Below are positions 9,459-63,898 of a stretch of 64,000 nt of DNA, one piece after another. The stretch comes from a virus. Lineage: Duplodnaviria > Caudoviricetes. The stretch is taken from IMG/VR virus record IMGVR_UViG_3300029305_005547, positions 32,001 through 96,000 of that record. The stretch is one strand, 5' to 3'. The position numbers were made by a program, and so were the translations under genes. The notes under the pieces are model-generated. The model was not told where the DNA came from and did no database searches. It saw only the letters and a program-made list of their open reading frames with translations. Position 1 is the stretch's first letter, and each line of letters opens with the position of its first letter.

Positions 9459-9518
9459 GAATCTGTAAGTCCCGAGAAATATCAAGACTTACAGAAAACT
9501 TACTTAACTAAATTCCGT
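9459..9518 (-). repeat. dispersed hairpin element copy 1 (truncated, no cassette)
   Basis: minus strand ACGGAATTTAGTTAAGTAAGTTTTCTGTAAGTCTTGATATTTCTCGGGACTTACAGATTC matches the copies at 24.8, 39.3 and 60.1 kb but lacks the TATTTARCTAAATAGTAA end. Confidence 0.9.
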
Positions 9519-24483: not shown

Positions 24484-24810
24484 TTAATCCATTACATAAA
24501 ATATACAATAATTGAAATCAAATGAACTTGCATGTGTTATAGCACCATTATTTACATATCTACCATATATATTTATTCCGTTCATGTTGTTTACTTGTGC
24601 TGTATACCATGTATACATAGATGTAGAGTTTGATCCATATCTAGGTGATAATATTATAGAGCCAACTTTTGCACCATCTGGAATATTTAATGATGCAAAT
24701 GAAACTGTAATAGCACCATTAGTTCCAGTTGTAGAACAATATCCTGTTGTCATTTTTATAATAGAGGCTGTATATCCATTTAATGTAATATTATTCACCT
24801 TACTATTTAG
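24484..24810 (-). CDS. silent tail-fibre tip cassette A (frame starts LNSKVNNIT...)
   Basis: frame opens right after TAA inside the hairpin element; Thr/Ser/Asn/Gly-rich beta-type domain of about 108 aa; GTG at 24798 has no properly spaced SD. Confidence 0.65.
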   Translation of the reverse strand, partial: LNSKVNNITLNGYTASIIKMTTGYCSTTGTNGAITVSFASLNIPDGAKVGSIILSPRYGSNSTSMYTWYTAQVNNMNGINIYGRYVNNGAITHASSFDFNYCIFYVMD

Positions 24811-24880
24811 TTAAATAAAGAATCTGTAAGTCCCGAGAAATATCGAGACTTACAGAAATTTTACTTAACTAAATTCCGTC
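24800..24880 (-). repeat. dispersed hairpin element copy 2
   Basis: GACGGAATTTAGTTAAGTAAAATTTCTGTAAGTCTCGATATTTCTCGGGACTTACAGATTCTTTATTTAACTAAATAGTAA on the minus strand. Confidence 0.95.
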
Positions 24881-32171: not shown

Positions 32172-33197
32172 GTGTTCGATGTAAACGAGAAAGAAAAACA
32201 AAAGATGGACTCCATTATTACTCAGTTGAGTGATGAAGGAAAAAGAGATTTACTAATGATGAATGGCGCTGAGAAGGAATTATTCAACGATCCATTTCAC
32301 CAGCAAGCAATACAGATGGGAATACTTGCAAAGCCCCCTTCTGATTTTGCTAGCAAATATAATATCCTTAAAGAATTTTTAATGAGTAAACGTTTCGAGG
32401 GATGCTCCAGTCAGACGCTTAAAATGTATTATGATACCTTATTTAATTTCCTAGTTCAATCGGATGATGACTTAACGGTATTTGATACTCGTACAGCTGA
32501 TGTTAGGAGTTATCTCATGAAATATCAGGAGATTAATAAATGTTCTAATATAACCATGGATAATATGAGACGAGTTTTTTCCTCATTTTATAACTGGCTT
32601 GAAGATGAAGACTATTCTATGAAAAATCCAGTTAAAAAAATTAAAAAAATTAAGTGTGAAAAGGTTATTAAGAAGCCTTTTTCTGACGAAGAGCTCGAAT
32701 CCATTAAAGATGCTTGTAAAAATTATAGAGAATTGGCATTGGTTGAATTTCTATATTCTACAGGAATTCGTGTTGGTGAGTTATGTGGACTTGATGTAGC
32801 AGATCTTGATTTTAATACACGTGAGGGAATTGTATTTGGTAAAGGAAGTAAAGAAAGAATTATTTATTTCGATGTGAAATCCAAAGTTCATTTAATAAGA
32901 TATATCAACACTAGAGTTGATAGTAATCCTGCATTATTTGTCACAAAGAAATATCCTTATAATAGATTAGAAAAAAGTGGTGTTGAATTAATTCTTAGAG
33001 AAATCGGATTAAGAGCTGGTGTAGAGAAATGCCATCCTCATAGATTTAGACGTACATTTGCAACTAATCTTTTAGATAGAGGTGTTCCAATTGAACAAGT
33101 TCAGGTTTTATTAGGTCATAGTAAAATTGATACTACATTGATCTATGCTACTGTAAATACTGCACAAGTTAAAATGAATCACAGTAGATACATTTAA
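32172..33197 (+). CDS. site-specific tyrosine recombinase (N-terminal SAM-like + catalytic domain)
   Basis: intact R (TGIRVGEL), K (GKGSKER), HxxR (HRFRR), H (LLGH), Y (TTLIY); AAAGGAG SD. Confidence 0.93.
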   Translation: MFDVNEKEKQKMDSIITQLSDEGKRDLLMMNGAEKELFNDPFHQQAIQMGILAKPPSDFASKYNILKEFLMSKRFEGCSSQTLKMYYDTLFNFLVQSDDDLTVFDTRTADVRSYLMKYQEINKCSNITMDNMRRVFSSFYNWLEDEDYSMKNPVKKIKKIKCEKVIKKPFSDEELESIKDACKNYRELALVEFLYSTGIRVGELCGLDVADLDFNTREGIVFGKGSKERIIYFDVKSKVHLIRYINTRVDSNPALFVTKKYPYNRLEKSGVELILREIGLRAGVEKCHPHRFRRTFATNLLDRGVPIEQVQVLLGHSKIDTTLIYATVNTAQVKMNHSRYI

Positions 33198-33254: not shown

Positions 33255-34301
33255 TTAGAATGTAATATCGATAGCTTTAACAGCTTCAATAGTTTCAGCA
33301 TTCTTAATTTCAACTTCGATAGTCTGCTGCTTAGAAACCAAAGGTCTAACAGTAGCTTCGATAGTAGCTGCCAATACCTGGAGCTCATCAAGAGTCCAAT
33401 CATAAGTACAAACTTCACCGGATGCATTCCAGCTAGGTTGATACTCAGGGTTAAGAGTACACATCATAATAACTGCCATAAGCTGGGACTGCTTATCTGC
33501 TGTCATAGAATACTCTGCTGCAACGCCCTTGTGTGCGTCACTTGTAACAGTATGTGTTGCAAGATAAGTTGCAAGGTTAATTTTACTCTGCTGGATTCTG
33601 TAATCCTTAAGACCATTGAGATCAAGTTCATTTTCATCAACACCAGCAAGCTGCTTTTTGATAGTTGCAACTTCAGAATTTGTTTCGGTAAGACCGTCCT
33701 GTAATCCACTTACAACAGTCATAGACTCAACAAGTTCTTTGTTTGTTGTCTCAACAGCTTCAATCTTCTCGATAAGAGACTCATTGTTTTCAGCCAATTC
33801 TTTATTGGCAGTTTCAACAGCTTCGATCTTCTCAGCAAGCTCTTCATTCAAATTAGCTAATTCTTCCTTAGCAGTTGCGAGATCACTGATATTCTGTTTC
33901 ATAGTTGAGTTTTCAGATTTAAGAGATTCATTTGCTTCAGTGAGAGCCTTAACATCTCCTTCAAGAGCAAGAATCTGATCCGGAATAGAAGTACTCTGAC
34001 TTAACTTAGCCATAAGAACTTCAACCTCTTCACCATCAACGTCGATGGTAGCAGTTGTGATCTGCTCCAGTACTGTGTAATCTTTCAATTCACGAACTAA
34101 AGTAGAATCTTCGTATACGCTAAGTACAGCGGTCTTTAATTCATCTGTACAAATTTCCTTAACTGCTTTTAAGGTATCGATTTCGGTACCAAACGCGATA
34201 CAAATAACTTTTTTCTGCACACCTTTCTTTTCGAGCATTGCTTCAAAAGGCAGAATAGAAAGTGCGTATGCAGAGGAGTCGTTTGTGACTAATTTATACA
34301 T
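33255..34301 (-). CDS. coiled-coil protein with C-terminal DUF4376-like (tail-fibre-associated) domain
   Basis: internal EKIEAVET repeat; C-terminal W..DELQVLA..IEATVRPLVSKQQ.IE.EIK.AETIEAVKAIDI; late promoter 34359-34371 (-). Confidence 0.6.
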   Translation of the reverse strand: MYKLVTNDSSAYALSILPFEAMLEKKGVQKKVICIAFGTEIDTLKAVKEICTDELKTAVLSVYEDSTLVRELKDYTVLEQITTATIDVDGEEVEVLMAKLSQSTSIPDQILALEGDVKALTEANESLKSENSTMKQNISDLATAKEELANLNEELAEKIEAVETANKELAENNESLIEKIEAVETTNKELVESMTVVSGLQDGLTETNSEVATIKKQLAGVDENELDLNGLKDYRIQQSKINLATYLATHTVTSDAHKGVAAEYSMTADKQSQLMAVIMMCTLNPEYQPSWNASGEVCTYDWTLDELQVLAATIEATVRPLVSKQQTIEVEIKNAETIEAVKAIDITF

Positions 34302-39274: not shown

Positions 39275-39308
39275 TGTATATCTTGAAAGTTTAGATGGTT
39301 GGTGGTCT

Positions 39309-39389
39309 GACGGAATTTAGTTAAGTAAAATTTCTGTAAGTCTCGATATTTCTCGGGACTTACAGATTTCTTATTTAGCTAAATAGTAA
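39309..39389 (+). repeat. dispersed hairpin element copy 3
   Basis: 39308-39390 is identical over 83 bp to 60079-60161. Confidence 0.95.
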
Positions 39390-40752
39390 TATGAGTAGTT
39401 ATTTACCATTAACCGGAGGAACTTTGAGTGGAAGTATTATTGTAGAGAAAGATAATGCCGGAGTGTCTGTAAATGATACCACAGTTGCACACAAGATCTC
39501 ATTAGCATCAAATGATGGCAATGCTGGAATATATGATAACACTAATACCAAGTGGATATTGAAAAGTGACTCAACTGGAGTTGTAACACTAGCTGGCGCA
39601 TCCTCTCATGCTGTAGTAACTGCAACAAATCCATCAACGGCAACAACTTATAGAATACCATTTATAAGCGGAACTTCAAGTGGTAATAGGGCGTTATTAG
39701 TAAATGATGGATTTGCTTATTATACTCGTGAAGGAACCGCTGATACTGACGGTATAGGATATATATTTTTAGGTAACAATAAAGATACAGGTACAGCCGG
39801 TAATAAACGTGGATGTATTAGATTGTATTCTAATTCGGAAAGTTACGCAAATATTTATTCAGCAGCATCTCTTGGAAGTAATGTAACAATAACGTTTCCA
39901 GCTAAAGGTGGTACAGTTGCACTCACTAGTGATTTTTCTGATTTACGTGATTATGACAATACATGGAATGGGGTAAATAACTTTACAGACGAAGTTAATA
40001 TGACAAGCACTGTTAATATGAAGTATTGGATTACCATTGATAAAAACGCTACTTGTGATATCAATTCTGGTATTTTTATGAATAATAATAGATTTATATC
40101 ATCAGGATCAGATTCAGCAGGAATATTTATTTGTGCAACTGCTTCTGGAACGACTGCTACCGGATCATCTCAAACATATAATTTTGCACCAACTGCATTT
40201 CGTCCTGGAAAAAATGATGATGTTGGATTAGGAGATTCATCACGTAAATGGAAACAACTTTTTGCTGTAACTTCAACAATTTCTACATCCGATAGAAACT
40301 TGAAAGATAATATAAACGAATTAACAGATATTCATAAAAAATTATTTATGAAATTAATCCCTGTTTCATTTACTTTTAAAGATGGAACTTCTGGAAGAAC
40401 ACATATAGGATTTATTTCTCAAGATGTTGAAGATGCTATGAATGAACTTGGAATGAATTCATTAGATTTTGCTGGGTTCTGTAAAGACGTTAAAACTAAA
40501 TCCATTATTGAAACCAGACCAAGTTTAAAGAAAGATGGTACTCAAAAATTTGATGAAAATGGTAATCCTGTATATGAAGAAATTGATAGAGATATTCCTG
40601 ATCTTGATGAAAACGGCAATATTCAATATGTTTATTCATTGCGGTATGAAGAATTCATTGGACTTGTTGTTCATGTATTGCAAGACTCAGTAAATCGTTT
40701 AAATTCTATCGAAGAGCGTCTTTCTAAATTGGAAAGTAATCACGACATATAA
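39379..40752 (+). CDS. tail-fibre distal cassette B with C-terminal intramolecular chaperone (peptidase S74-like)
   Basis: frame TAG|LNSN-MSSYLPLTGGTLSG; TSDRNLKDNI, RTHIGFISQDVE, YSLRYEEFI; ATG at 39391 has no SD; no N-terminal baseplate anchor evident. Confidence 0.8.
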   Translation, partial: LNSNMSSYLPLTGGTLSGSIIVEKDNAGVSVNDTTVAHKISLASNDGNAGIYDNTNTKWILKSDSTGVVTLAGASSHAVVTATNPSTATTYRIPFISGTSSGNRALLVNDGFAYYTREGTADTDGIGYIFLGNNKDTGTAGNKRGCIRLYSNSESYANIYSAASLGSNVTITFPAKGGTVALTSDFSDLRDYDNTWNGVNNFTDEVNMTSTVNMKYWITIDKNATCDINSGIFMNNNRFISSGSDSAGIFICATASGTTATGSSQTYNFAPTAFRPGKNDDVGLGDSSRKWKQLFAVTSTISTSDRNLKDNINELTDIHKKLFMKLIPVSFTFKDGTSGRTHIGFISQDVEDAMNELGMNSLDFAGFCKDVKTKSIIETRPSLKKDGTQKFDENGNPVYEEIDRDIPDLDENGNIQYVYSLRYEEFIGLVVHVLQDSVNRLNSIEERLSKLESNHDI

Positions 40753-40917
40753 AATTATAGTTAATGGTGATGAATTTATTATTTCTAAATTCATTTTTAT
40801 AATTAATTTTAATTAATTTATATTCCATATACCCAACTTGGGTATATGGAATATTTTCCCTATTTTCCACCCCGGAAACATTGTTTTAATACTTCTATGA
40901 AAGGAAGTGATATTTTT

Positions 40918-43900
40918 ATGGCAGGTAAAGAAATAAAAGTTTCTAAAACCTATAAGACTAATAACGGAGTTAAGCTAAATGCGCAATGGCTTAAAAACGC
41001 TACTAGATCGTTAGGGTCTAACGCAGGAAGTGTCTTGCAAGAAATAAGTCCTAACATTTATGGGGTCGCTGAATCTGCCGCCCAAATCAAAAGAACGTTC
41101 ATGAGATCAAAAGTATCTCAGAATGCTGTATCACAGGCTATTGAATCTAATCGTTATATTAAAATGGGTAGAACCGCTATTGATAATGCGATTAAAGATT
41201 TAAAGTCAGGTAACTTTAATAATGATTCCAGATCATCGGGTGGAAATGATGAATCAACGAGTTATTCGTTTGGTGAAATCAACGATGCTGAAGCTGGATC
41301 AACTGGGCAGATTCAGGTCAATTTAAACCCTGAAGGTTTGACGTCCATTAATAACTCCATTACGAAACAAACGAAGTTTCAGATGCAGGCTGCAAAAGCC
41401 AATGTAGATGCTATCGTTGCTACATCTTCAGCAATGATGACTATGAATCAAAGAAATGCTGAAGCTTCTTTAAATATGCTTACAAACATCAATAATAGTT
41501 TGCAAGCTCTTATTAAATATAATAATGAAAATATGTCCAAGTTCATTGCGTCATCTATGACGTATTATGAAATGATGGGACAAGTACATGCTCCTGCTAA
41601 AAAACCTGGTGGTGTAAATAACAGGTTAACTGGAGCCGATGTAACTGATAAACGTGGTAATTTAAATACTGCAAATTTGGCAAAATTGATTAAGCAAAAT
41701 GCTAAAGAACGTTATGCTGAAACAATGCCTGGTCAGTTAACATCAATGCTTGATACTTTTGGAGAAGAGTTAGTAGCTAATCCTCTTAAATTAGTAACTA
41801 CAACTCTCATGAAAGAGATTATACCGAAGTCTGTAAAAGAAGCTACAAAGAATCTTGATAAGACATTTGGAAACTTTGTAACTGAACTTTTAATGAAATC
41901 TTCGGAAACATTGAAAGCATCATCTGGAGGAAAATTATCTGGATTAAAACAATTCTTAGGTTCTGTACTAGATATCAATGTAAAGAGACAAGAAAAGTTT
42001 AATACTGCAGGTAAAGTAACCACAGATGCTGCTGTTTTTGACGGAATAACGCGTAATGCTATTACGACTGAAATTCCTAAATACTTAAGAGAAAGCACTG
42101 CTTATTTAAGACAATTAGTAGCTTTAAATGGTGGTGATCCTGATAAAGCTCTTGCAGGTTCACAGATATTCAATAGAGAATCTGGTACTTTCCAAAGATA
42201 TGAGGATTTTACAAAAGAACTTTTAGGTTCTATAAATGAATCAGTAATTAGCAGTTTAGCTTCTAGTGATTTTGGAAAGACTATGTCTAAAGTAGCTAAC
42301 TCTGCTGTTGTTGGTGAACAAAGACAAGAAGCTTTTGAGGCATTACTTAAAAAGTTTTATATTGCTCTTGAAAAAGATGATCGTCAAAGAATTGATTTAA
42401 CTAGGCGTGGTGCTGGAAGTGACATTAATGCAATTATAGGGTCTCTTCAAGGAGATGCTGCTTTAAAACAGATTCTTGAAGAAGCTGTTTACATGTCATT
42501 TGGTCATGGAAAAGGTGGAATCAATTTAAATAGTGCAAGACTTAATGCTAAGTCTATGAGAAATAGACGTATACAAGAACTTGAAGAGAATAATCTTGGA
42601 GAGTTATCTGGTCTTACAAAACATGGTCAGACTATAGACGAAGCTATGGCTTCTGTTATTTATGGTTCAGACGGACATGCAACAAGAACTACTCCTTACA
42701 CTCCTACTTCATTACTTGGACGTGTTACAAGTATTTTTGATATCTTAGAAAGAGGTATCAATGTAAGAGTAACAGGAAAAACCCCTTATGGTAAATTTAA
42801 AGCTGGTGCAGTAAATCAAAATAATAATGCATCAGTTTCATCAAATCAAAGTTCTTCTAATGCATCTAGTTCAAGTTCTGGACTTATGGATGAAGCTGAA
42901 TTGCAAGCTCAGCTCGCTGGTGCGTTAGATGAACCTCAATCTTCTAATACTTCTGGTAGAAAAGGAAGTAAATTCTTCGTTAATAAAACAGAGCATCTTG
43001 GTAATATGATGCATTATATTTTACAGGGTGACCCTGCTAAAGTATATGCTGAAATGGGTGCATTGTTTGGAGAAGGTGTTACTGCATTAGGTCATTCTAT
43101 GAAGGATGCTGTTATCGCTCCTTTAAAAGAAACCTTATTTGGTGACAAAGATGCTTCTATTACAGGAAAGATTCATGACATGTTTTCTGGACTTAAAGAA
43201 GACATGGCTACATTCGTTCTTGGTCCAAAAGGAGAAGATGGAAAAAGAACAAAGACTACCAGTTCTGTAAAAGGTTTTCTCGAAGAGGGGCTTAAGAGCT
43301 GGAGTGAGACACTTTTTGGTGGTGAAAAATCTTTCGAAGACATTAAGAAAGATTTAAAAGACAATATAAAGAAAAATTCTGATGCTGGACTTAAAGGTGC
43401 AGTAGCAGGTGCTGGATTAGGTATCGCATCAGGTGGTTTACTTGGTACTTTAGTAGGTGGACCTTTGACAGGTGCATTACTTGGTACTGCGACAGCAATT
43501 TTCACTAAATCAGAAGGTTTCCAAAAACTCATGTTTGGTGATCAACATGAAGAACTTGAAGGAAAAGATGGTAAAAAATATGATGTTCGTAAGGGCGGAT
43601 TAATTTCACCTCAAATCCAGAAATTCTTCAAAGAACACAAACATGATATGATTGGTTCTGCTGGCATTGGTGCTATTGGTGGTGCTTTTACTGGTGGTGG
43701 ATTACTTGGTACATTAGTAGGTGGTCCTGTTGCAGGTGCATTACTTGGTACTGCTGTAGGTATTGCTAAAAATTCCGATACCTTCAAAAACTTAATCTTT
43801 GGTAAAGAAGTTGGAGAAGGTGATAATAAGAAAAGAATTGGTGGTATTTTAGGTGCTTTTAACAGAGCATTTGAAGACGCTAATCCTAAGGACAAAACTA

Positions 43901-46900
43901 AAGCTAATGCTAAAAGTATGGCTGCACGTGGAACAGTAGGTGCTGGTGCTGGTTTGCTCATGAGCATGTTTACACCTCTTGGACCTATTGGTGGAGCTGC
44001 GTTAGGTTTAGCAACATCAATGGTATCGTCAAAAGATAGATTCCATGAGTTATTGTTTGGTCCTAAAAATAAAGAAGGAAAAACAAATGAAGGACTTCTT
44101 ACACGGTTAAGTGCGAGAATTTCTAAAACCGTTGTTGCTCCATTAGCAGGTATTGCATCAGATGCATTATATGATGTAAAAGATGCTATACTTGATAAAG
44201 TAATTGATCCTATAGCTAATTTAGCAGAACCTATTGCTGGATTAACTAGAAGAATTTATGATAGAATGGAAGAAAAAATTACAGGTGCGTTTGATACATT
44301 AAAGAATGCATTTGGAAAAGTTACTGGTGGTATAGGTAAGTTCTTCCAGAAAATGGTAATGAAAATTTTTAATCGTAAACGTAAAGATGAAAAAGGTGAT
44401 AAGAGTGATAAGCAAGGAATCTTTGGTAAAATAAGTGACTTTGCTCGTAGATCAAATGCCAAGGCATCAAGAAAAAAATGGTATGATGAATCATATCGTA
44501 CTACTCAGGATTTCAAAGATCGTTATGAAAAAATGAACGAGAAATGGAATTCTCTTTCTGATGAACAAAAATCCAAGTATGGTGATATTGATAGTTTCGA
44601 ACTCGAATGGGCTGAAAATATTTTCTATAATGGTGGAGATGGGCGAAAAGATCGTTTAGATGCTAGACAGGCAAGACGTGCTGAACGTTTATCATCTAGA
44701 CAAGAGCGTAGAGATAAACTTAATCGTGAAGCTCTTATTGCAGAACTTACAAAGGGCAAATATTCTAATAGTTCTAAAGAAGCTATGGCTGAGGCGTTAG
44801 AAGCTTATAAGAAAACTAGAGGATATAGACGTGGTAAAGGCATGAACGGTATTTCTCATGACGATGTACAACGTTTATTGACGACTGGTGGTGAAATTGG
44901 TGATGCTGAACGTACATCAGAAGTTATAACCCAACAGCTTGATGTTGAAAGAGAGCAATTAGATAAATTAACAGATCAATTAACTTTACTTGAAAGAATT
45001 GAAGTAGGTATATCTGATTTAGTTAGCAGAGGGTCCGATGGAGTTAAATCTATGGTATCTTATGTGAGACAAAATCACAACTCTAGACGAATTGAACGAC
45101 GTTCTGCACAGTATGAGCAATCTGCATTTATGGCAGACCTCACATCTGATGCTAACATGGAAGTTGCTTCAGATCATCGTGCTAGTGGATATAATGAATA
45201 TACTGGTTTTAAAATTCCTAAGGAAACTTTAAAACGCTTAAAGAGTGTTGCGAATAATCCTCAAAATCCTATGCAATCTTTAGCTATTGATGCTCTTGAT
45301 ACTACTCTTAATGATAGTGATAGAAAGAAAGCTTATGAAAAGATTTTAAAAGCATGGGAAAATAAAAAGAATGCTAGAAAGAATAACAGAATGCAACATA
45401 GACAAAATGTTGCTGATGCTAAAAATTCTAGAAGAAATATACGTCATCTTGAATCAGAAAGCAGAGATGCTCATACAAATGAAACATTATCCAGATTACG
45501 TGAAATGACTGGTGGTCGTGGATATGCAGATGGTACTGATAATGCTAAAGAAGGTGACGCTGTTGTTGGTGAGAACGGACCTGAAATCGTAAGATTTGGT
45601 GGTGGTGAAAAAGTTCTTTCTAATAACGATATGATTAAAGTAAAGATTGTAGATGTTGACACATCTGCAGCTAAAAAACTTAATGACACCGGTACTCAGG
45701 ATGTTAATATCGTTGGTCAGACTGGTGTTCTTACAACTTATGGTACTTCTGCAAGATTAGACCATAATACTGATAATAAGTCTGCTATCCAAAAAGCACT
45801 TTCTAAGAAAGATACACTTGTAAGTTATGATCAAATCAAAGCTGACAATAATGATCTTGCTGAAGAAGGTGAAGGTGGTAGCACTCATACTGAAAAATCT
45901 AGTACATGGGAAAAGATTAAAGAAACCGTAGGTGGTTTAGGAAATATTTTACTTGGTGGTGGTGCAATAGCTGCACTAGTAAAACTACTAGGAAATGAAA
46001 ATGTTCAGGAAATTCTTAAAGGAATCATTAGTGCTTTTGGTGGTTCTGCTGAAACTATGGCTAGTGTTGCTAAAAATGATGGATACGAAGGTGGTGCTAA
46101 TGCAGTCACTAACGTAAAAAATCAGTTTAGTAGATGGGGTTCTATTTTATCTGATCCTAAGAAGTTCTTACTTGGTGAAGATGGTGAATGGGATAGTCAA
46201 TCTACGGCAATAGCAAGAACTGGACGTGTTGGACTTAGTAGATTACTTAACGGTAAATCTGGAAAGAGAAAGAATGGATTAGTTAATGCATTACTTCATC
46301 CTGTACAGACAGTAAAGACAGCTATAAGGCATCCATTCAAAACATTAGGTAATATCGGAACTGGAGTTAAAAACTTTGGTAAAAATGCATTAAACGCAGG
46401 TAAAGGACTTGTTAATTTTATTAAGAGTCCTACAAAGTTAGATGATCTTAAAAACCTTGGAAAATCTTTAATCAAAAAGACTGACGCTTCAAAGCAGTTT
46501 ACTATGATAAAAGATTTAGCAACCAATTTTATACATGGTGAAAAAGGTGCAAAGTTATCTGGCGCATATAACATCGTTCACGATGCAGTTGATGGTATAA
46601 ATCCTAATAAAAGAGGTTTATCTGGTTGGTTGACAAAAACATCTGATAAACTTATGAATTATGCAATGGAACATGGTGATGCTAAAACCCAGTCACTTGT
46701 TGCAAAACTTACAGGTCATTCAGTTGATGAAATGGCACCAGCTCTTGCTAATAAAGCTATGAAAGAAGCAGGTGAAGAAGCGACTGAAAAAGCTGCAAAA
46801 ACAGCAACTAAAAAAGCTGGTAAGAAAGGATTCCTAGCTTCTGCAAAAGAATTTGTTCAGAAAGTTTCTAAATTTGGTGCTGGTAAAGTAGCGAATGAAG

Positions 46901-49900
46901 GAGCTGAAAACCTTGCTGAAAATGCTCTCGAGAAAACAGCAAAAACTGCTATTAAAGAAGTAGGTCAGAAAGTTGTAAAAGAAACTGCTGAAGATGCCGC
47001 TTCTAAGAGTATTATTGCTGCAGCTAAAAAAGGTATTCTTGAAGCCATTGAGAAAGTTGCTTCCACTATTATGGAAAAAGGTGGGAAAAAACTTGCTGGT
47101 AAGTTAAGTACAACTGGTGTTAAAAAAGTAATCACTGAAGTTTTTGAAAAGATTTCAAAAGGTCTTGTCGGAAAAATGGGTAAATGGATTGCTAAGAAAT
47201 TAGCAGCCGTTGCTGCACGTTTAGGTATATCTTTAGGTGTAACAGCAACTGGTGTTGGTGCAATCGCTACTGTAGTTGCAAATGGTGCATTCCTTGTATT
47301 AGGAGCAATTAACTCTGCTGGCAAGGGCGGTACAGCTCGTATGTTTAGATGTAAACAAGCAGATGTTGATTGGAAGATGCAAATTATTTCAGCAGCTATT
47401 GGTGGTTTGGTTGAAACTGATATAGGTTGTGTTGTTGACGTCGCAAACGAGATTTACTGTGCACTTACTGGTGATGATTTCATTACCCGTATTGCTACTG
47501 CATTTTATAATGCAATTTCTGGTAAAGAAGATGAAGAAGCATTAAAAGCATCTCAGACTCAGTTAATTAATGATTGGGAAGCTTATAAGGAAAACTTCCT
47601 TCAGACTGAATGGAAAACATTCTGTGAAGAAAACCCTGATTTAGCAATGGATTTCGAAACCTATAAGCAGAAAGTTGCTAATGGGGAACTTGAATCTGAT
47701 GTAATGGGTCTTGCAGAATATAATGATGATCAAAATAAAACCGTTGGTGCCAAAATTGCTGATGGTGCAAAAGATGCTTGGAATTGGACAAAAGATACTG
47801 CTAAAAAAGGTTGGGATGCAACCGTATCCGGAGCTAAGAAAGCAGGTAACTGGATAGCTGATACAGCATCTAGTGGATGGAACGCTGTTAAAAGCGGATG
47901 GAACTCTCTTTGGGGAGGAAAAGGTGGTAAAGGCGGATCTGGTGCTGCAGTACCTTTCTATTCACAAAAAGATCCGAGATGGGCTGGAATGCAATATACC
48001 AGAGGTGGTTCTGGGGAATCTATGAGTGAAATTGGATGTGGTCCTACTGCATTTGCAATGGCTGCATCTGGTGCTACTGGTAGAAATATTGATCCTGTTC
48101 AAGCCGCTGGTGCAATGCAAAGAGTTGGAGCAAGAGACAATACAGGAACTAACTGGGGTGGTATTGGTGCCGCAGCAGATATGTATGGTATCGAAACTCG
48201 TATGCAACAGAATCCTTCTGGAGCATTTATTGACTCTGAACTTAACGCAGGTAATCCTGTAGTTTTATCTGGTAGATCTGGTGGATATGGAACTCCATAT
48301 ACTCCACAAGGACATTATGTCGTTGCTACTGGAAAAGACAACGATGGAAATTATATCGTTAATGATCCTAACCGTTTAGGTGGATCTAGAAAATTCAAAA
48401 AAGCTGATATGCTTGCTGAAACTGGAGCTGCTTGGGGCTTTGGAGGAAAAGGTCATAATGGTATGCCATCAGATGTAGAACAACGTTTATATGGTAATAC
48501 TACATCTGGTTCTGTAACTAGTATGACTTCTGGTTATAACGGAATGCCTTCAGATGTACAAGCTAAGCAAGTAGCACAGAATAATGCTAAAAATGAGGAA
48601 AAGAAGCAAGAAGCAAGAGCAAAATGGCTTAATATAGTACGTGCTGTAAAGAAAGCATTAGCTGATCTTCACGTAGGATATTCGCAGTCAAGATGGGTTA
48701 CTGTTACTTTAGGTGGAAAACCATTAAGTGTAAGAACCGACTGTTCTGGTTACGTTACAGCATGTCTTAAATTCTTTGGAGTAATAGATGACAAGGCAAA
48801 CCTTGTATCTAATAATTACGCAAACCCTAATACCCAAGCATTATTAAAGGCTGGGTTTAGTTCACATCCTTTCACTTCTTGGGATTTACTTGAAGAAGGT
48901 GATATTATTGGTGTGAATGGTCACGTTGAAATCTTTGCATATAACAAAGATGGAAAACATTACGTTTATAACTGTGGTAGTGACAAGAGTTGTAACAGCC
49001 CAATTCCTACAGTTACAGGGCATAAAACGTATACTACATACTGGACTCCAGGAGAACCTGGATCAGGTATTGCGGATGCAAGTTCTGTATCAAGTAGTGC
49101 AGATGGCTCTACAACAGGTGATGCTACAACTTCAAGTTCTTCTGGAATGGATTTCTTTTCTAAGATTACTTCATTCTTCTCTGAACTTGGATCAAGAGCT
49201 GTATCCGGATTTACTACAGGAAAATGGAATAAAGATTGGTCTGGTGTATTTGGTGACAGTTCATCTAGTACTGCATATTCAGGTAGTACTATTAGTTCTA
49301 CTGGTGAGGTTGTAGCTGATACATCTGTAAAAGGATCAACTTCCGCTGAAAGAATTTGGAATCTGCTTAAACAGCAAGGTATGACAAATGCCGGTATTGC
49401 TGGTGTTCTTGGAAACCTTCATGCAGAATCTGGATTACGTACAAACAATGTTCAGAATAGCTATGAAAGTAAAGTAGGTTCTGATACAGAATATACCGCT
49501 AAGGTTGATAATGGTTCATATAATAATTTTGCACATGACTCTGCAGGTTATGGTCTTGCACAATGGACGTATCACAGTAGAAAGCAAGCTCTTTTAGATC
49601 TTGCTAGAAGCAGAGGTAAATCTATTGCAGATGAATCTGTTCAAACAAGTCATTTGCTTAATGAACTTAGTAAATATCCTGACCTTGTAAATACTCTGAA
49701 AACAACAAGTAGTGTCTCTGATGCGACAAGTAAGTTTATGCTTGATTATGAAAGACCTGCTGATCAGAGTCAGTCTGCACAAAATAAACGTGCAGGTTAT
49801 GCACAAGCGTATTATGATCAATATGCTCATAAATCAGCTACAACATCTGGTTCTGTAACCAGTATGACTACTGGATATAACGGAATGCCTTCAGATGTAC

Positions 49901-50274
49901 AAGCTAAAATGTATGGAAGTGGTGGTGCTGGTGCTGGTGGTAGAGGAGTTTCTTCTACAGGAATTATTAAACCACATATGACATCTGCTCCTGTTAGTGG
50001 AAAGAATATGCCTACAAATAGTAGTGATGTAAGTTCTGTAATTCATTACTTATCTCAGATACTTGCAGTGCTTGATCAGTCTTCAGATAAGCTTGACGCT
50101 CTGAATTACTTAAAAAGTCTCGCAAATTCTGGGGGAAATGTAGTGACTAACAACAACATTTACTCTCAAACTAACAATAATGGAGTAAGGGCTGGACAAC
50201 AGCAAATGACTGCTTCTAAAACAGATCCAAATAAATTCTCAACTGCTCAGAAAATAGCTAGTGGCGGTTTGTAA
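40918..50274 (+). CDS. tape measure / tail-associated protein with C39-like peptidase, NlpC/P60(CHAP)-like and phage tail lysozyme domains
   Basis: start moved to MAGKE (AAAGGAAG SD; promoter 40877-40889); Gly/Ala TM-like repeats; GYADGT..VVGENGPE; FYSQKDPRW..GCGPT..GHYVV; TDCSGYV..GHVEI; GVLGNLHAES..GYGLAQWT. Confidence 0.85.
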   Translation: MAGKEIKVSKTYKTNNGVKLNAQWLKNATRSLGSNAGSVLQEISPNIYGVAESAAQIKRTFMRSKVSQNAVSQAIESNRYIKMGRTAIDNAIKDLKSGNFNNDSRSSGGNDESTSYSFGEINDAEAGSTGQIQVNLNPEGLTSINNSITKQTKFQMQAAKANVDAIVATSSAMMTMNQRNAEASLNMLTNINNSLQALIKYNNENMSKFIASSMTYYEMMGQVHAPAKKPGGVNNRLTGADVTDKRGNLNTANLAKLIKQNAKERYAETMPGQLTSMLDTFGEELVANPLKLVTTTLMKEIIPKSVKEATKNLDKTFGNFVTELLMKSSETLKASSGGKLSGLKQFLGSVLDINVKRQEKFNTAGKVTTDAAVFDGITRNAITTEIPKYLRESTAYLRQLVALNGGDPDKALAGSQIFNRESGTFQRYEDFTKELLGSINESVISSLASSDFGKTMSKVANSAVVGEQRQEAFEALLKKFYIALEKDDRQRIDLTRRGAGSDINAIIGSLQGDAALKQILEEAVYMSFGHGKGGINLNSARLNAKSMRNRRIQELEENNLGELSGLTKHGQTIDEAMASVIYGSDGHATRTTPYTPTSLLGRVTSIFDILERGINVRVTGKTPYGKFKAGAVNQNNNASVSSNQSSSNASSSSSGLMDEAELQAQLAGALDEPQSSNTSGRKGSKFFVNKTEHLGNMMHYILQGDPAKVYAEMGALFGEGVTALGHSMKDAVIAPLKETLFGDKDASITGKIHDMFSGLKEDMATFVLGPKGEDGKRTKTTSSVKGFLEEGLKSWSETLFGGEKSFEDIKKDLKDNIKKNSDAGLKGAVAGAGLGIASGGLLGTLVGGPLTGALLGTATAIFTKSEGFQKLMFGDQHEELEGKDGKKYDVRKGGLISPQIQKFFKEHKHDMIGSAGIGAIGGAFTGGGLLGTLVGGPVAGALLGTAVGIAKNSDTFKNLIFGKEVGEGDNKKRIGGILGAFNRAFEDANPKDKTKANAKSMAARGTVGAGAGLLMSMFTPLGPIGGAALGLATSMVSSKDRFHELLFGPKNKEGKTNEGLLTRLSARISKTVVAPLAGIASDALYDVKDAILDKVIDPIANLAEPIAGLTRRIYDRMEEKITGAFDTLKNAFGKVTGGIGKFFQKMVMKIFNRKRKDEKGDKSDKQGIFGKISDFARRSNAKASRKKWYDESYRTTQDFKDRYEKMNEKWNSLSDEQKSKYGDIDSFELEWAENIFYNGGDGRKDRLDARQARRAERLSSRQERRDKLNREALIAELTKGKYSNSSKEAMAEALEAYKKTRGYRRGKGMNGISHDDVQRLLTTGGEIGDAERTSEVITQQLDVEREQLDKLTDQLTLLERIEVGISDLVSRGSDGVKSMVSYVRQNHNSRRIERRSAQYEQSAFMADLTSDANMEVASDHRASGYNEYTGFKIPKETLKRLKSVANNPQNPMQSLAIDALDTTLNDSDRKKAYEKILKAWENKKNARKNNRMQHRQNVADAKNSRRNIRHLESESRDAHTNETLSRLREMTGGRGYADGTDNAKEGDAVVGENGPEIVRFGGGEKVLSNNDMIKVKIVDVDTSAAKKLNDTGTQDVNIVGQTGVLTTYGTSARLDHNTDNKSAIQKALSKKDTLVSYDQIKADNNDLAEEGEGGSTHTEKSSTWEKIKETVGGLGNILLGGGAIAALVKLLGNENVQEILKGIISAFGGSAETMASVAKNDGYEGGANAVTNVKNQFSRWGSILSDPKKFLLGEDGEWDSQSTAIARTGRVGLSRLLNGKSGKRKNGLVNALLHPVQTVKTAIRHPFKTLGNIGTGVKNFGKNALNAGKGLVNFIKSPTKLDDLKNLGKSLIKKTDASKQFTMIKDLATNFIHGEKGAKLSGAYNIVHDAVDGINPNKRGLSGWLTKTSDKLMNYAMEHGDAKTQSLVAKLTGHSVDEMAPALANKAMKEAGEEATEKAAKTATKKAGKKGFLASAKEFVQKVSKFGAGKVANEGAENLAENALEKTAKTAIKEVGQKVVKETAEDAASKSIIAAAKKGILEAIEKVASTIMEKGGKKLAGKLSTTGVKKVITEVFEKISKGLVGKMGKWIAKKLAAVAARLGISLGVTATGVGAIATVVANGAFLVLGAINSAGKGGTARMFRCKQADVDWKMQIISAAIGGLVETDIGCVVDVANEIYCALTGDDFITRIATAFYNAISGKEDEEALKASQTQLINDWEAYKENFLQTEWKTFCEENPDLAMDFETYKQKVANGELESDVMGLAEYNDDQNKTVGAKIADGAKDAWNWTKDTAKKGWDATVSGAKKAGNWIADTASSGWNAVKSGWNSLWGGKGGKGGSGAAVPFYSQKDPRWAGMQYTRGGSGESMSEIGCGPTAFAMAASGATGRNIDPVQAAGAMQRVGARDNTGTNWGGIGAAADMYGIETRMQQNPSGAFIDSELNAGNPVVLSGRSGGYGTPYTPQGHYVVATGKDNDGNYIVNDPNRLGGSRKFKKADMLAETGAAWGFGGKGHNGMPSDVEQRLYGNTTSGSVTSMTSGYNGMPSDVQAKQVAQNNAKNEEKKQEARAKWLNIVRAVKKALADLHVGYSQSRWVTVTLGGKPLSVRTDCSGYVTACLKFFGVIDDKANLVSNNYANPNTQALLKAGFSSHPFTSWDLLEEGDIIGVNGHVEIFAYNKDGKHYVYNCGSDKSCNSPIPTVTGHKTYTTYWTPGEPGSGIADASSVSSSADGSTTGDATTSSSSGMDFFSKITSFFSELGSRAVSGFTTGKWNKDWSGVFGDSSSSTAYSGSTISSTGEVVADTSVKGSTSAERIWNLLKQQGMTNAGIAGVLGNLHAESGLRTNNVQNSYESKVGSDTEYTAKVDNGSYNNFAHDSAGYGLAQWTYHSRKQALLDLARSRGKSIADESVQTSHLLNELSKYPDLVNTLKTTSSVSDATSKFMLDYERPADQSQSAQNKRAGYAQAYYDQYAHKSATTSGSVTSMTTGYNGMPSDVQAKMYGSGGAGAGGRGVSSTGIIKPHMTSAPVSGKNMPTNSSDVSSVIHYLSQILAVLDQSSDKLDALNYLKSLANSGGNVVTNNNIYSQTNNNGVRAGQQQMTASKTDPNKFSTAQKIASGGL
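48502..49907 (+). repeat. 65-bp direct repeat pair within the tape measure gene (48502-48566, 49843-49907)
   Basis: 62/65 identical; encodes TSGSVTSMT(S/T)GYNGMPSDVQAK. Confidence 0.85.
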
Positions 50275-60610: not shown

Positions 60611-63600
60611 ATGAGTATATTTACTGAATCAGAAAAGAACTTTTTAAGTTCTCTTGGAGATACTGATATATTCATAGAGTCTTCTAAATCAGATAGAGTT
60701 AAGGTTTTGAATAAAACTATTGAGGTTTTAGAATCTTTAGGATTTAATCCAAAGATTAGTAAACCAAGTAGGGTTGGTTGGATAAATGAAAATAATTCTG
60801 GTGATTTTGAAGAAAGTCTGTGTATATCTTTAGGTAAATTACAGGGTTTAGAATCTGTATGTACTAAAGTTAATAAAGAGATTAAACCATTAGGTGGTAA
60901 AGTATCTCCTGATAACTATGGAACGATTTTTTTGTCTATGAAAGACAATGTAGTTACTGAATCGTATATTGGTAACTATTTTAGAAATAAAGTATTACTT
61001 CATAAGCTTGGAAAGAATCCGGAGCTTAATGAAAGAACTATAATCAAATTTATCAAAAATCTTACTCTTAAATATGAAGAGAGTCTTTTGGATGAAGATG
61101 TACAAAAAATAATGAAAAAACGTGATGTTGCTGATTATTTCGTACCGCAAGCAGAGTTAAATTTTCCTGATGGAATGATAATAACATTTGCTTTTTGTTA
61201 TGATAAGAAATCACTTACTCCCGGAGCAGCGTTTAAGAACGATAATAAAGATTATATTGTGTTACTCTATCCATGTTTTTTCGATTGCAGAGATATGGAT
61301 GTGAATGTATTTACAATAATGCATGAAATTGGACATATAAGACTTGGGCATTGTGAATTAAAGAATAGATCTTTAGATCCTCAGAGACGCCAGAAAGTAA
61401 TGGTTAAAGGTGGTGTCATTTATACTGAACTTAATGCTGACCTTTATGCTTCTTTAAATGGTGCTAAGATGTATACCATTTTAAAAGAAGGGATTGATAA
61501 GGATTACGATAAAAACTACGATTATCGCTATACAAATAACGAACTGTCTAAGAGGTATTCATTTGTTTTAAAGAATTACCAAAAGTTGCGTCCTATGACT
61601 GAAAGTTTGGAAAATACGGTTTGTGAATATATGGCGGAATCCTTAAAATCTGATTACAGATATGAAAATATTAATTCAATAAATGAAATATCAGATTTTT
61701 TAAAAGTAATGAAAGATGTATTTGACGAAGATTCTGATATGTCTGAATCTGCTATTAAGAAGAGTATGAAATCAATATATTTTAAAAACAAATTGATCGG
61801 ATATGTTGGTTTCAGTGAATATAATATCAAAGGTAAAAAATATCTTGGTATTGGTAATTTTATTATTCTTCCTAAGTATCAAAGACAAGGTTATGGAACC
61901 GATGTTATTGAAGATATTATCAGAACAAATAAAGACAACTACGATGAAATTTATTGCTATGTGGATAAAGATAACAAAAAAGCGATTAGGTTTTATGATA
62001 AGATTGCAAAAATCAATAAAAAACATTTGAATGAAAATGGATATTTTTATGTATCACTATATAAAGAATCTGTTGAAGATATCCATGATAACTGGTGCTA
62101 TATTACAGAATCTGATGATAAAAAACGAACTGCTAAAACAGGTGAGTTTGAAATTGAAAAAGTTGAGTTCAAAGTCTATAATGATAGAGACTATTCGTAT
62201 GTAACCGTTAAAGGAATTGATAAACCTTTAAGAGGGCGTTCTGAAGTAATTATAATGAAAGATGACGAAGTTTACTTATGTTTCGACAATGATCGCTACA
62301 GACTTCCTGGAGGTGGTTGGGATAAGGGTGAATCTTATGAGCATGCCGCGTTAAGAGAAACCAAAGAAGAAGCAAAAATTAATTGTACGAATATCAAGTA
62401 CTGTACTTCCAGAGTTGATGTATCTGATGGGGTACCTGATAAATGTAAAAAAGAAAACATACCAGAAGAAGGATATTGGTATGGATACTTTACAAAGGTA
62501 TTCATTGCTGAATATGATAAGAAATTTTCTGGTCATGTTGATAAGGAGGATCAAGATCCTAGTATGGTTAAGACTGGTAAATTTTATCCATTCGAAGAAA
62601 TAAAAGATCAATTATACTCTGAACATAAAGAAGCAATTGAAAAGTATCTTGGTGTTAGTGATGAAGTATTTAAGGAAGATGCTTTAGATGATGATGCATT
62701 TGATATGATAGATGTTATGTTAGAAGCAGCATCAGATTCTCATATCATTAAAGATGTATTGTATCCTCCAATTGAAGCTGTTCTTAAAACACGAGATGGT
62801 GATAAACTTTTCAAACGATATGTGGAAGAGTTTATTGATAGAAATACTGAAAAACTTCACGAACCTTGTCCTATATCATTAATTCCTTTTACAGATAATG
62901 ATAAGGCTAGATTCTTTAGTTTATTTAATTTAAATGAAAAAGAATGTATTAAAGTAATAGGTCAAGCAGCAGATGCTGTATCAAGCAGTGCTAATTTTAG
63001 GCTTGTTAAACAGAATCCTATATTCTGTGTATTTTATTTAGTACTTAGATACTATATCATCAATAAAGATGAGTCTGGTATCAATAGTACATTAGCAATA
63101 CATGCTTTAGCTTCATACCCATCTGTATTTAGTAAATACTTTAAGTATGGTGCAAATCCTGGTATTATGAGATATACAGCAGATCATCTTACAGAGAAAT
63201 TTATTTTCAAGCAGGAAGGACATGTTTTTGGTGCTCTGAGAAAATCTATAGAAGCATCTTACAAATTCCTTAAACCTTATTTTGATGAGGCTACTGATAA
63301 GGAAATGATTCGTTATATTCAGCGTATTCGTAATGATCAAAACTCTCTTATTAAGAAGATCGCAAATGAATATCAGAAAAATTATAAGGCTGGTAAAAGT
63401 GTAAGTACACAGAATGAAACTTATGATACTGGTGCATTAATTGATGACTACAATAATGATACTTCAAAGGCAGAAACTGCAAGTCATTCTATAATCATTA
63501 GTTTACTTACAAATGGTATTGATTTAAGAATCCTTGAAACTGCTAGTGAAATAGCTCAGTTATCAATTTCAGAACTTAGATTGTATCTTGTTAAGATATT

Positions 63601-63898
63601 AGTCGATTCAAGATCTACTGAGATTGAAGATTTTATCAGTGCAGTGTTATTCATCTATTTATACGATGAAAAGCATACTATGGATGAAATCAAATCAAAA
63701 CAATTCTTGTCATTTGGTATTTCTTTATTTAGAAAGACAAATTCTAATGATAAGAATATTGCAACTATCAAAAAGACTTTAGATAAATGGGCAGAAGAAA
63801 CAGGTATTCATAATAGATATAAACGTGAACCTACCAGAATTGCTTATAAGAAAGGTATTTATTGGTATATTTTGCTCACAATTCAATCTAATCTATAA
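60611..63898 (+). CDS. multidomain putative virion protein: HEXXH metallopeptidase-like, GNAT acetyltransferase, NUDIX hydrolase and C-terminal helical domain
   Basis: HEIGH; ILPKYQRQGYGT; LPGGGWDKGESYEHAALRETKEEAKI; late promoter 60571-60583. Confidence 0.8.
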   Translation: MSIFTESEKNFLSSLGDTDIFIESSKSDRVKVLNKTIEVLESLGFNPKISKPSRVGWINENNSGDFEESLCISLGKLQGLESVCTKVNKEIKPLGGKVSPDNYGTIFLSMKDNVVTESYIGNYFRNKVLLHKLGKNPELNERTIIKFIKNLTLKYEESLLDEDVQKIMKKRDVADYFVPQAELNFPDGMIITFAFCYDKKSLTPGAAFKNDNKDYIVLLYPCFFDCRDMDVNVFTIMHEIGHIRLGHCELKNRSLDPQRRQKVMVKGGVIYTELNADLYASLNGAKMYTILKEGIDKDYDKNYDYRYTNNELSKRYSFVLKNYQKLRPMTESLENTVCEYMAESLKSDYRYENINSINEISDFLKVMKDVFDEDSDMSESAIKKSMKSIYFKNKLIGYVGFSEYNIKGKKYLGIGNFIILPKYQRQGYGTDVIEDIIRTNKDNYDEIYCYVDKDNKKAIRFYDKIAKINKKHLNENGYFYVSLYKESVEDIHDNWCYITESDDKKRTAKTGEFEIEKVEFKVYNDRDYSYVTVKGIDKPLRGRSEVIIMKDDEVYLCFDNDRYRLPGGGWDKGESYEHAALRETKEEAKINCTNIKYCTSRVDVSDGVPDKCKKENIPEEGYWYGYFTKVFIAEYDKKFSGHVDKEDQDPSMVKTGKFYPFEEIKDQLYSEHKEAIEKYLGVSDEVFKEDALDDDAFDMIDVMLEAASDSHIIKDVLYPPIEAVLKTRDGDKLFKRYVEEFIDRNTEKLHEPCPISLIPFTDNDKARFFSLFNLNEKECIKVIGQAADAVSSSANFRLVKQNPIFCVFYLVLRYYIINKDESGINSTLAIHALASYPSVFSKYFKYGANPGIMRYTADHLTEKFIFKQEGHVFGALRKSIEASYKFLKPYFDEATDKEMIRYIQRIRNDQNSLIKKIANEYQKNYKAGKSVSTQNETYDTGALIDDYNNDTSKAETASHSIIISLLTNGIDLRILETASEIAQLSISELRLYLVKILVDSRSTEIEDFISAVLFIYLYDEKHTMDEIKSKQFLSFGISLFRKTNSNDKNIATIKKTLDKWAEETGIHNRYKREPTRIAYKKGIYWYILLTIQSNL

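Follow-up and report, generated by a model that had tools for sequence, protein, structure and literature searches.

A two-stem hairpin element that probably marks vacant docking sites in a dispersed archive of tail-fibre tips in a large phage

The window analysed here, a stretch of 64,000 nt, spans bases 32001-96000 of a virus record of 278,849 bp, rated complete by CheckV. The genome has a G+C content of 32%, and Aragorn detected no tRNA genes in the whole 279-kb phage genome. It contains 18 copies of an 80-nt element that are 94-100% identical and have unrelated flanks; one strand has 13 copies and the other 5, and four copies lie in the window (Table 1). The loci with the element, referred to below as sockets, span genome positions 19-172 kb and are mostly in direct orientation; copy orientation followed no consistent pattern relative to GC skew. 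Each complete copy is made up of a left junction L (18 nt, ACGGAATTTAGTTAAGTA), a 51-nt filler and a right junction R, whose last 11 nt (the R core) are the fibre-gene hinge codons L-N-S-N/K. L is identical in 18/18 copies and the R core in 16 of the 17 that have an R box, while the filler is polymorphic. The socket at 96118 (genome 96095-96176, just past the window end) has one extra T in its R core (CTAAATTAGTAA), and since a 97-codon frame is still open from its AGT codon, it can be described as a frameshifted socket. A G-rich (often GGGG), sequence-variable tract occupies the 10-15 nt upstream of every L and abuts it (for example, window 39298-39309 and L049:9394-9403); it occurs in all lineages, expression loci included, and resembles a Shine-Dalgarno sequence, but its spacing to start codons is inconsistent.

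Table 1. Element copies, tip cassettes and associated genes. Coordinates are those of the window unless a genome or contig position is indicated.
Feature	Coordinates	Strand	Description
Element copy 1, truncated	9462..9518	-	L box and inner hairpin (C>T, giving T.G); no R box, no cassette; a separate terminator hairpin follows
Silent tip cassette 2	24484..24810	-	LNSK VNNITLNG..., 106 aa
Element copy 2	24800..24879	-	R box with TAACT, T-A pair instead of T.G
Xer-like tyrosine recombinase	32172..33197	+	Only site-specific recombinase found in the genome
Gene adjoining the recombinase gene	33255-34301	-	348-aa protein with C-terminal DUF4376 domain; no flanking inverted repeats found
Element copy 3	39310..39389	+	Identical to copy 4 over 81 nt
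Copy 3, L box	39310-39327	+	
Copy 3, outer 5' arm	39315-39328	+	
Copy 3, inner hairpin	39333-39366	+	
Copy 3, outer 3' arm	39371-39384	+	
Copy 3, R core	39379-39389	+	CTAAATAGTAA
Silent tip cassette 3	39379..40752	+	LNSN then MSSYLPLTGG..., 455 aa from the AGT codon (39385), Peptidase_S74 chaperone domain
ORF directly 3' of cassette 3	40846-50274	+	3,142 aa
Element copy 4	60081..60160	+	Identical to copy 3 over 81 nt
Silent tip cassette 4	60150..60491	+	LNSN GPSGYRF..., 111 aa; first in-frame start codon at codon 62
Gene for a two-domain protein	60611-63898	+	1,095 aa, GNAT acetyltransferase and NUDIX domains
Expression locus (L042)	genome 135681-138090		Window coordinates would be 103681-106090, beyond the window
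Complete fibre gene	genome 136210-138090		626 aa, good RBS; outside the window
Lineage B element copies	L049:9404-9492 and five further; L054:1680-1759, 3204-3283, 3642-3721		

Positions 39315-39384 of copy 3 had been described in the initial annotation as a hairpin of two paired boxes, and the layout given there was exact: a 13-nt box (39315-39327), 5 nt (39328-39332), a 14-nt arm (39333-39346), a 6-nt loop (39347-39352), a second 14-nt arm (39353-39366), 5 nt (39367-39371) and a 13-nt box (39372-39384). This 70-nt two-stem hairpin is real and far beyond chance. As + strand RNA it folds into one extended hairpin with 14 + 14 pairs, in which a symmetric internal loop of 4-5 nt parts two 14-bp helices, and its folding energy of -34.8 kcal/mol (z -9.9) was equalled in 0 of 200 shuffles. 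The corresponding value for the - strand was -24.7 kcal/mol, and folds calculated with DNA parameters gave -15.8 (+ strand) and -12.0 kcal/mol (- strand). Matches to the inner arm in the window numbered 8, equivalent to four hairpins, compared to 0.45 expected, and none of 100 shuffles reached 8. The element corresponded to no Rfam family at gathering score, and E-value mode returned only weak matches to plant miRNA precursors, which are generic long hairpins. Exact-pattern scans detected it neither in the viral contig collection nor in metagenome contigs (two patterns), blastn against cultured phages returned nothing, and a covariance model (R1) found no match on five IMG/VR sequences more distantly related to the fibre N-terminus.

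What follows the element is constant in reading frame. Sixteen copies end in TAG and then CTA AAT AGT AA (L-N-S-N/K), opening frames of 92-455 codons in one register; a frame of at least 92 codons in that register is found in 16/17 copies with an R box, as against 12% for a random position and frame (P about 2e-14). These frames lack the start expected of a gene, with no ATG, GTG or TTG within the first 10 codons in 11 of the 16 cassettes and the first one at 62-140 codons in some, and no long ORF runs into any of the 18 copies (none >30 codons). In PHROG comparisons the cassettes matched the C-terminal ends of long tail-fibre proteins (for example, residues 25-227 with 555-740 of 743, and residues 51-451 with 571-925 of 927), and hence they are stored fibre tips rather than ordinary genes. 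The start of cassette 3 resembles the tip of the expressed fibre gene; we found no longer protein in which this cassette is fused to the fibre N-terminus, and no strain expressing it.

Outside the window, the genome has its single complete fibre gene (Table 1), whose codons 375-378 (LNSN) coincide with the 11-nt core of the element; the 16 silent tips that are in frame have this core as well. A solo L box, corresponding to the first 18 nt of the element, lies at genome 135681, 1,633 nt upstream of the fibre-gene core, and the expressed locus is accordingly arranged as L-1.63 kb-R-tip, compared to L-51 nt-R-tip in the silent loci. The 1.63-kb segment comprises a terminator, a divergent 56-aa ORF, the promoter region, an RBS and fibre codons 1-374. 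Its 56-aa ORF has one weak paralogue only and, being absent from the lineage B segment, is not required. Because only 6 nt of the outer 3' arm are kept at the expression locus, the same fold cannot form there. An AT-rich motif (...ATAATAATATATCA...) is common to genome 27965-28046 and 136020-136100, upstream of divergent small genes, and probably represents a phage promoter type.

We compared these arrangements with those in other strains. In homologues of the fibre N-terminus at 95, 94, 74, 71 and 65% identity the similarity ends right after LNS(N/K), and in three others at 66% it ends after LNCN, each homologue carrying a different tip. In lineage B, L049 is arranged as flankX-L-hairpin-R-tip1-flankY-L-segment-R-tip2, and L054 as flankX-L-segment-R-tip1-flankY-L-hairpin, with blocks that have 92-99% identity and no overlap beyond L (about 20 nt) and R (about 15 nt). 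Tip1, silent in L049, forms the expressed tip in L054 (protein P0006). In lineage A, L052 has the flank of the 96118 socket of this genome joined at L to a 1.65-kb segment (94.4% identical) and, at R, another tip followed by a further element, and in L053 the segment is at the same locus as in this genome, yet with another tip. In lineage D, L057 and L058 have a common segment but a different left flank and tip. The homology breakpoints are exactly at the two outer boxes, between which a 1.3-1.6 kb promoter-plus-N-terminus segment replaces the hairpin spacer. These arrangements indicate that L and R are recombination junctions and that filler and segment are alternative occupants of a socket. 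The earlier view of the element as a recombination-related site tied to tail-fibre cassettes is thereby upheld, its outer boxes being the exact breakpoints in other strains.

The alternative arrangements were seen between strains only (L054/L049, L052/this genome and L057/L058), and with a sequence divergence of 2-6% between these strains, exchange could be a rare event. L052, L054, L057 and L058 are metagenome contigs, for which chimeric assembly is unlikely since the shared stretches (10-20 nt) are shorter than the usual assembly k-mers. Logan contigs of four DNA runs break at repeats, and none of their loose ends maps to this genome; the only weak hint of switching within a sample is an X4 contig that begins precisely at the R core of the expressed tip.

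For the Xer-like recombinase encoded in the window the best model was the Xer-type NF040815 (231 bits), and with 82.7 bits against the integron-integrase model TIGR02249, whose cut-off is 265, it is not an integron integrase. Its homologues run to thousands at 54-60%, some of them on bacterial-sized contigs with the source name XerD. The gene is 70 kb from the expression locus and not adjacent to sockets, and we found no convincing inverted repeats around it. A search of the genome for a Y1 transposase, serine recombinase, reverse transcriptase, IS110 or TnpB found none. The Xer-like protein is a candidate enzyme for the element. In lineage C, a reverse-transcriptase gene (RVT_1; L056:9266-10414) lies about 2 kb downstream of the fibre gene, and may be part of a diversity-generating retroelement alongside the cassette archive.

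With the anatomy of the element and its in-frame relation to the tips established, and with segment and filler found in alternative sockets with breakpoints at L and R, the reading we favour, at a probability of about 0.6, is that the element is a vacant docking site before archived promoterless, start-less tips, into which the segment swaps at L and R. The tip archive would, at this same level of confidence, operate by a variant of expression-site switching. Recombination at L and R would move the 1.63-kb segment into another socket and leave the hairpin filler behind, and a different tip would then become the expressed receptor-binding end, without inversion or deletion of the DNA between distant loci. 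The exchange may be dedicated and recurrent, and might be performed by the Xer-like recombinase or, alternatively, by a structure-specific nuclease together with gap repair, in which a break at the hairpin or cruciform would be mended using L and R. A more specific proposal, which we advance only tentatively and regard as possible at best, is a programmed two-junction exchange between the mobile segment and a hairpin placeholder that changes host range from an archive of 16-17 tips, the folded or cruciform placeholder being the signal for the Xer-like recombinase or a structure-specific nuclease.

In the favoured docking-site reading the hairpin would also keep the stored tips silent, through in-frame stops and, in lineages A and C, a terminator-like stem with a T-run. 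A stop codon in the tip frame precedes the core in every lineage. In lineage A, to which the window copies belong, the inner stem (14 bp, of which 6 are GC pairs) and the T-run after it (TTTCTTATTT) were flagged on the + strand as terminator-like; in lineage C the inner stem is followed by TTTTTT, and lineage B is without a clean inner stem and without a T-run. Going by these features, a silencing plug for stored tips is plausible in A and C, where it would explain the tolerance of sense-strand G.U pairs, but this role is not conserved in lineage B. The hairpin may, in addition, hold L and R together as a recognisable structure.

The elements of lineages A, B and C are equal in length and align ungapped over 80 columns, and the G-rich tract at L, the L box, the TTTCT/AGA flanks of the inner region and an L-complementary R box are, like the fixed length, common to all lineages. 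On the structure originally proposed, 86% of cells are paired, compared to 80% when shuffled and 32-47% with the partner slid. Both partners have changed in seven pairs, of which three belong to the outer helix and four to the inner helix, and three of the inner-helix changes part A from C (GTAAG/CTTAC to CTATC/GATAG). Such paired changes across lineages indicate selection on the hairpin and especially on the complementarity between L and R, a pattern that would fit a folded form and, equally, two inverted binding sites for one protein. Comparison of homologues, which had been suggested as a check, showed that compensatory changes have preserved base pairing between the outer boxes.

The initial annotation had stated that every stem mismatch gives a G-T pair on the cassette-sense strand. 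Its own examples stand, with CTTGA in copy 1 giving T.G, and TAACT versus TAGCT giving T-A versus T.G, but as a rule it fails in further copies. The copies at genome 118143 and 171806 have C>A in the 3' inner arm and hence a G.A mismatch, lineage B has an A.C mismatch on the cassette-sense strand in 9/9 copies, and lineage C has both G.A and A.C sense-strand mismatches in the outer helix; given these B and C homologues, the all-G-T pattern is limited to lineage A. Mean RNA energies for the sense and antisense strands, respectively, were -34.9 and -25.1 kcal/mol in A, -27.5 and -25.1 in C, and -16.5 and -22.7 in B, so that the sense strand is the more stable one in A (by about 10 kcal/mol) and in C (by about 2), and the antisense strand in B (by about 6). 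About half of the inner stem is unpaired in lineage B, and since exchange occurred there with this degenerate stem, a clean inner stem is not needed. The inner region of lineage B has a chimeric look, with a 5' arm like that of C and a 3' arm like that of A that no longer pair, and this sequence pattern suggests past crossovers inside the hairpin.

Integron attC sites have R and L boxes with an unpaired 5-6 nt spacer per arm and the motif 5'-RYYYAAC ... GTTRRRY-3', with AAC/GTT at the hairpin base, and extrahelical bases on one arm give strand selectivity, it being the folded bottom strand that is recombined (PMC5027507). The attC/IntI system and the one described here are alike in their imperfect two-box hairpins with about 5 nt of unpaired spacer per arm, their promoterless cassettes and their recombinases of the same superfamily (PMC5027507). 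Our element does form a hairpin with boxes around an unpaired central spacer, but it has GTTAAGT ... ATTTAGC (ATTTAAC in one copy), that is, the two motifs in reversed order on both strands, and these GTTRRRY/RYYYAAC-like boxes adjoin the internal loop rather than the hairpin base and are absent in lineage C. Its arms pair without bulges and in the same arm-to-arm register in A, B and C, and there are no extrahelical bases. It lies 5' of each cassette, one site per cassette inside the reading-frame junction, with its last 11 nt in frame with a gene fragment, whereas attC cassettes are whole genes, and its strand asymmetry is not conserved. The reversed box order, the lack of extrahelical bases, the position 5' of the cassette and the Xer-like nature of the recombinase show that the element is not an attC site, bearing out the early caution that it is at most an analogue.

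The element might nevertheless be recombined as a folded single strand, in the manner of attC or CTX phage, with the paired boxes as the core site on which the Xer-like recombinase acts. This would agree with two 14-bp helices around a symmetric internal loop of 4-5 nt, with an outer helix conserved by compensatory changes at a length invariant across lineages, with a lineage A sense strand more stable by about 10 kcal/mol and with the assignment of the genome's only recombinase to the Xer/integron-integrase superfamily; there is, moreover, an established precedent in CTX phage, in whose integration Xer recombinases use a folded single strand. However, the strand asymmetry is not conserved (sense in A and C, antisense in B), the sense strand has A.C and G.A mismatches in B and C and a G.A mismatch in two A copies, and lineage B underwent exchange with about half of its inner box unpaired. 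Neither extrahelical bases nor the attC order of GTTRRRY and RYYYAAC, boxes missing altogether from lineage C, are present, the expression locus cannot form the same fold, and the elements have no consistent orientation with respect to GC skew. Unpairable and A-C sense-strand substitutions were what the initial annotation had itself named as evidence against its proposal of folded-single-strand action, which is left unsupported and which we consider improbable; a folded-DNA mechanism may still be involved, though it has no specific support in our data. G-T asymmetry in four near-identical copies is, in the event, an unreliable sign of single-strand function. An explanation with no dedicated machinery, in which intergenic terminator or insulator hairpins undergo occasional general homologous crossovers, as in PeSL, is unlikely, though it accounts for several of the observations: the terminator shape of the inner hairpin with its T-run in A and C, the sense-strand G.U pairs in A that fit an RNA-level role, rearrangements found only between diverged strains, the chimeric-looking inner arms of lineage B, which suggest crossovers inside the element, and the documented precedent of PeSL-mediated shuffling (PMC2839356). 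It is countered by stretches of identity no longer than 18 and 10-11 nt, which is very little for homologous exchange, by the invariance of L and the R core in copies retaining them while the filler is polymorphic, by the in-frame stop-plus-hinge and G-rich left flank kept in three lineages despite diverged boxes, and by the absence of terminator features in lineage B.

There are two further explanations. The cassettes could be expressed in place by shunting, splicing or a bypass like that of T4 gene 60, with take-off at an AGU followed by UAA and landing at an AGU 63 nt on. A conserved upstream ACG GAA TTT AGT TAA with a matched in-frame AGT exactly 63 nt downstream, a hairpin that begins 11 nt past the take-off codon and the G-rich, Shine-Dalgarno-like tract before L would all suit such a scheme, but a start codon in the required frame is absent in 5/18 copies, the Shine-Dalgarno-like tract is not consistently spaced, lineages B and C do not conserve the take-off and landing codons, and no ORF >30 codons runs in. 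A solo L box, the core within a full-length fibre gene and the strain comparisons together explain the frame relation at the DNA level. Expression in place, which is very improbable, was hence rejected in its bypass, shunt and splice forms on the missing starts, the non-conserved codons, the lack of an incoming ORF and the strain comparisons. Equally remote is a MITE-like mobile element that has spread in the genome and is unrelated to the fibre genes. The element does consist almost wholly of two inverted arms and does occur as 18 dispersed, near-identical intergenic copies, but copies with an R box abut fibre-tip frames in one register (16/17), the R core forms part of the fibre coding sequence, the genome has no transposase from any of the tested families, and no copies were present in the phage, viral and metagenome collections searched. 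The constant reading-frame relation to the tips led us to reject this reading.

If the element is a docking site, its closest counterparts in working logic would be the Mycoplasma vpma/vsa switches and the shufflons or invertible fibre segments, with PeSL as a recombination-prone phage repeat. In vpma/vsa, Xer1 or HvsR moves one promoter or 5' end among silent genes (PMC2268961), and the likeness extends to one expression site, many signal-less silent genes, a short site at the 5' junction and an Xer-like recombinase (PMC2268961). Those loci are, however, compact clusters that switch by inversion, whereas the sockets of this phage lie scattered across about 150 kb, most of them in direct orientation, and a 1.6-kb promoter-plus-half-gene segment alternates with a hairpin filler at two junctions. 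As in vpma/vsa and shufflons, one expressed and several silent copies have a common junction and breakpoints fall at this junction (between strains), but there is no inversion within a cluster, the sockets being dispersed and the recombinase not adjacent. Shufflons and invertible fibre segments (Rci/sfx, Gin/Cin/Min and the Rin shufflon of Bifidobacterium prophages; PMC6109161) likewise join the constant N-terminal part of a receptor-binding protein in frame to alternative tips at short repeats. Their sites of crossover belong to the translated sequence and are grouped in a single invertible region beside the invertase, in contrast to the untranslatable, stop-bearing hairpin before each tip and the dispersal of the tips among housekeeping genes here. 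With the PeSL of T4-type phages (PMC2839356) the element has in common dispersed, near-identical intergenic repeats, a terminator-like stem-loop and breakpoints of modular shuffling. PeSL include a promoter and flank whole accessory genes, whereas our element is promoterless, ends inside a reading frame and precedes fibre tips. In pilE/pilS, vlsE and yeast MAT, a variant cassette goes to a fixed expression site. These systems are similar to ours in having an archive of silent variants, a single expression context and conserved flanking sequences, but here it is the expression module that occupies different sockets while the tips stay at their loci.

The junction sequences, a candidate enzyme and natural switched variants are now defined, and the system is therefore directly testable. 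If the exchange is programmed, it would represent a type of host-range switch that has not been described for phages, in which scattered tips stay put and the expression module moves, with no inversion or deletion of the intervening DNA. It would, if true, explain how a large gut phage holds many receptor specificities in reserve, and would be a natural example of recombinase-mediated cassette exchange.
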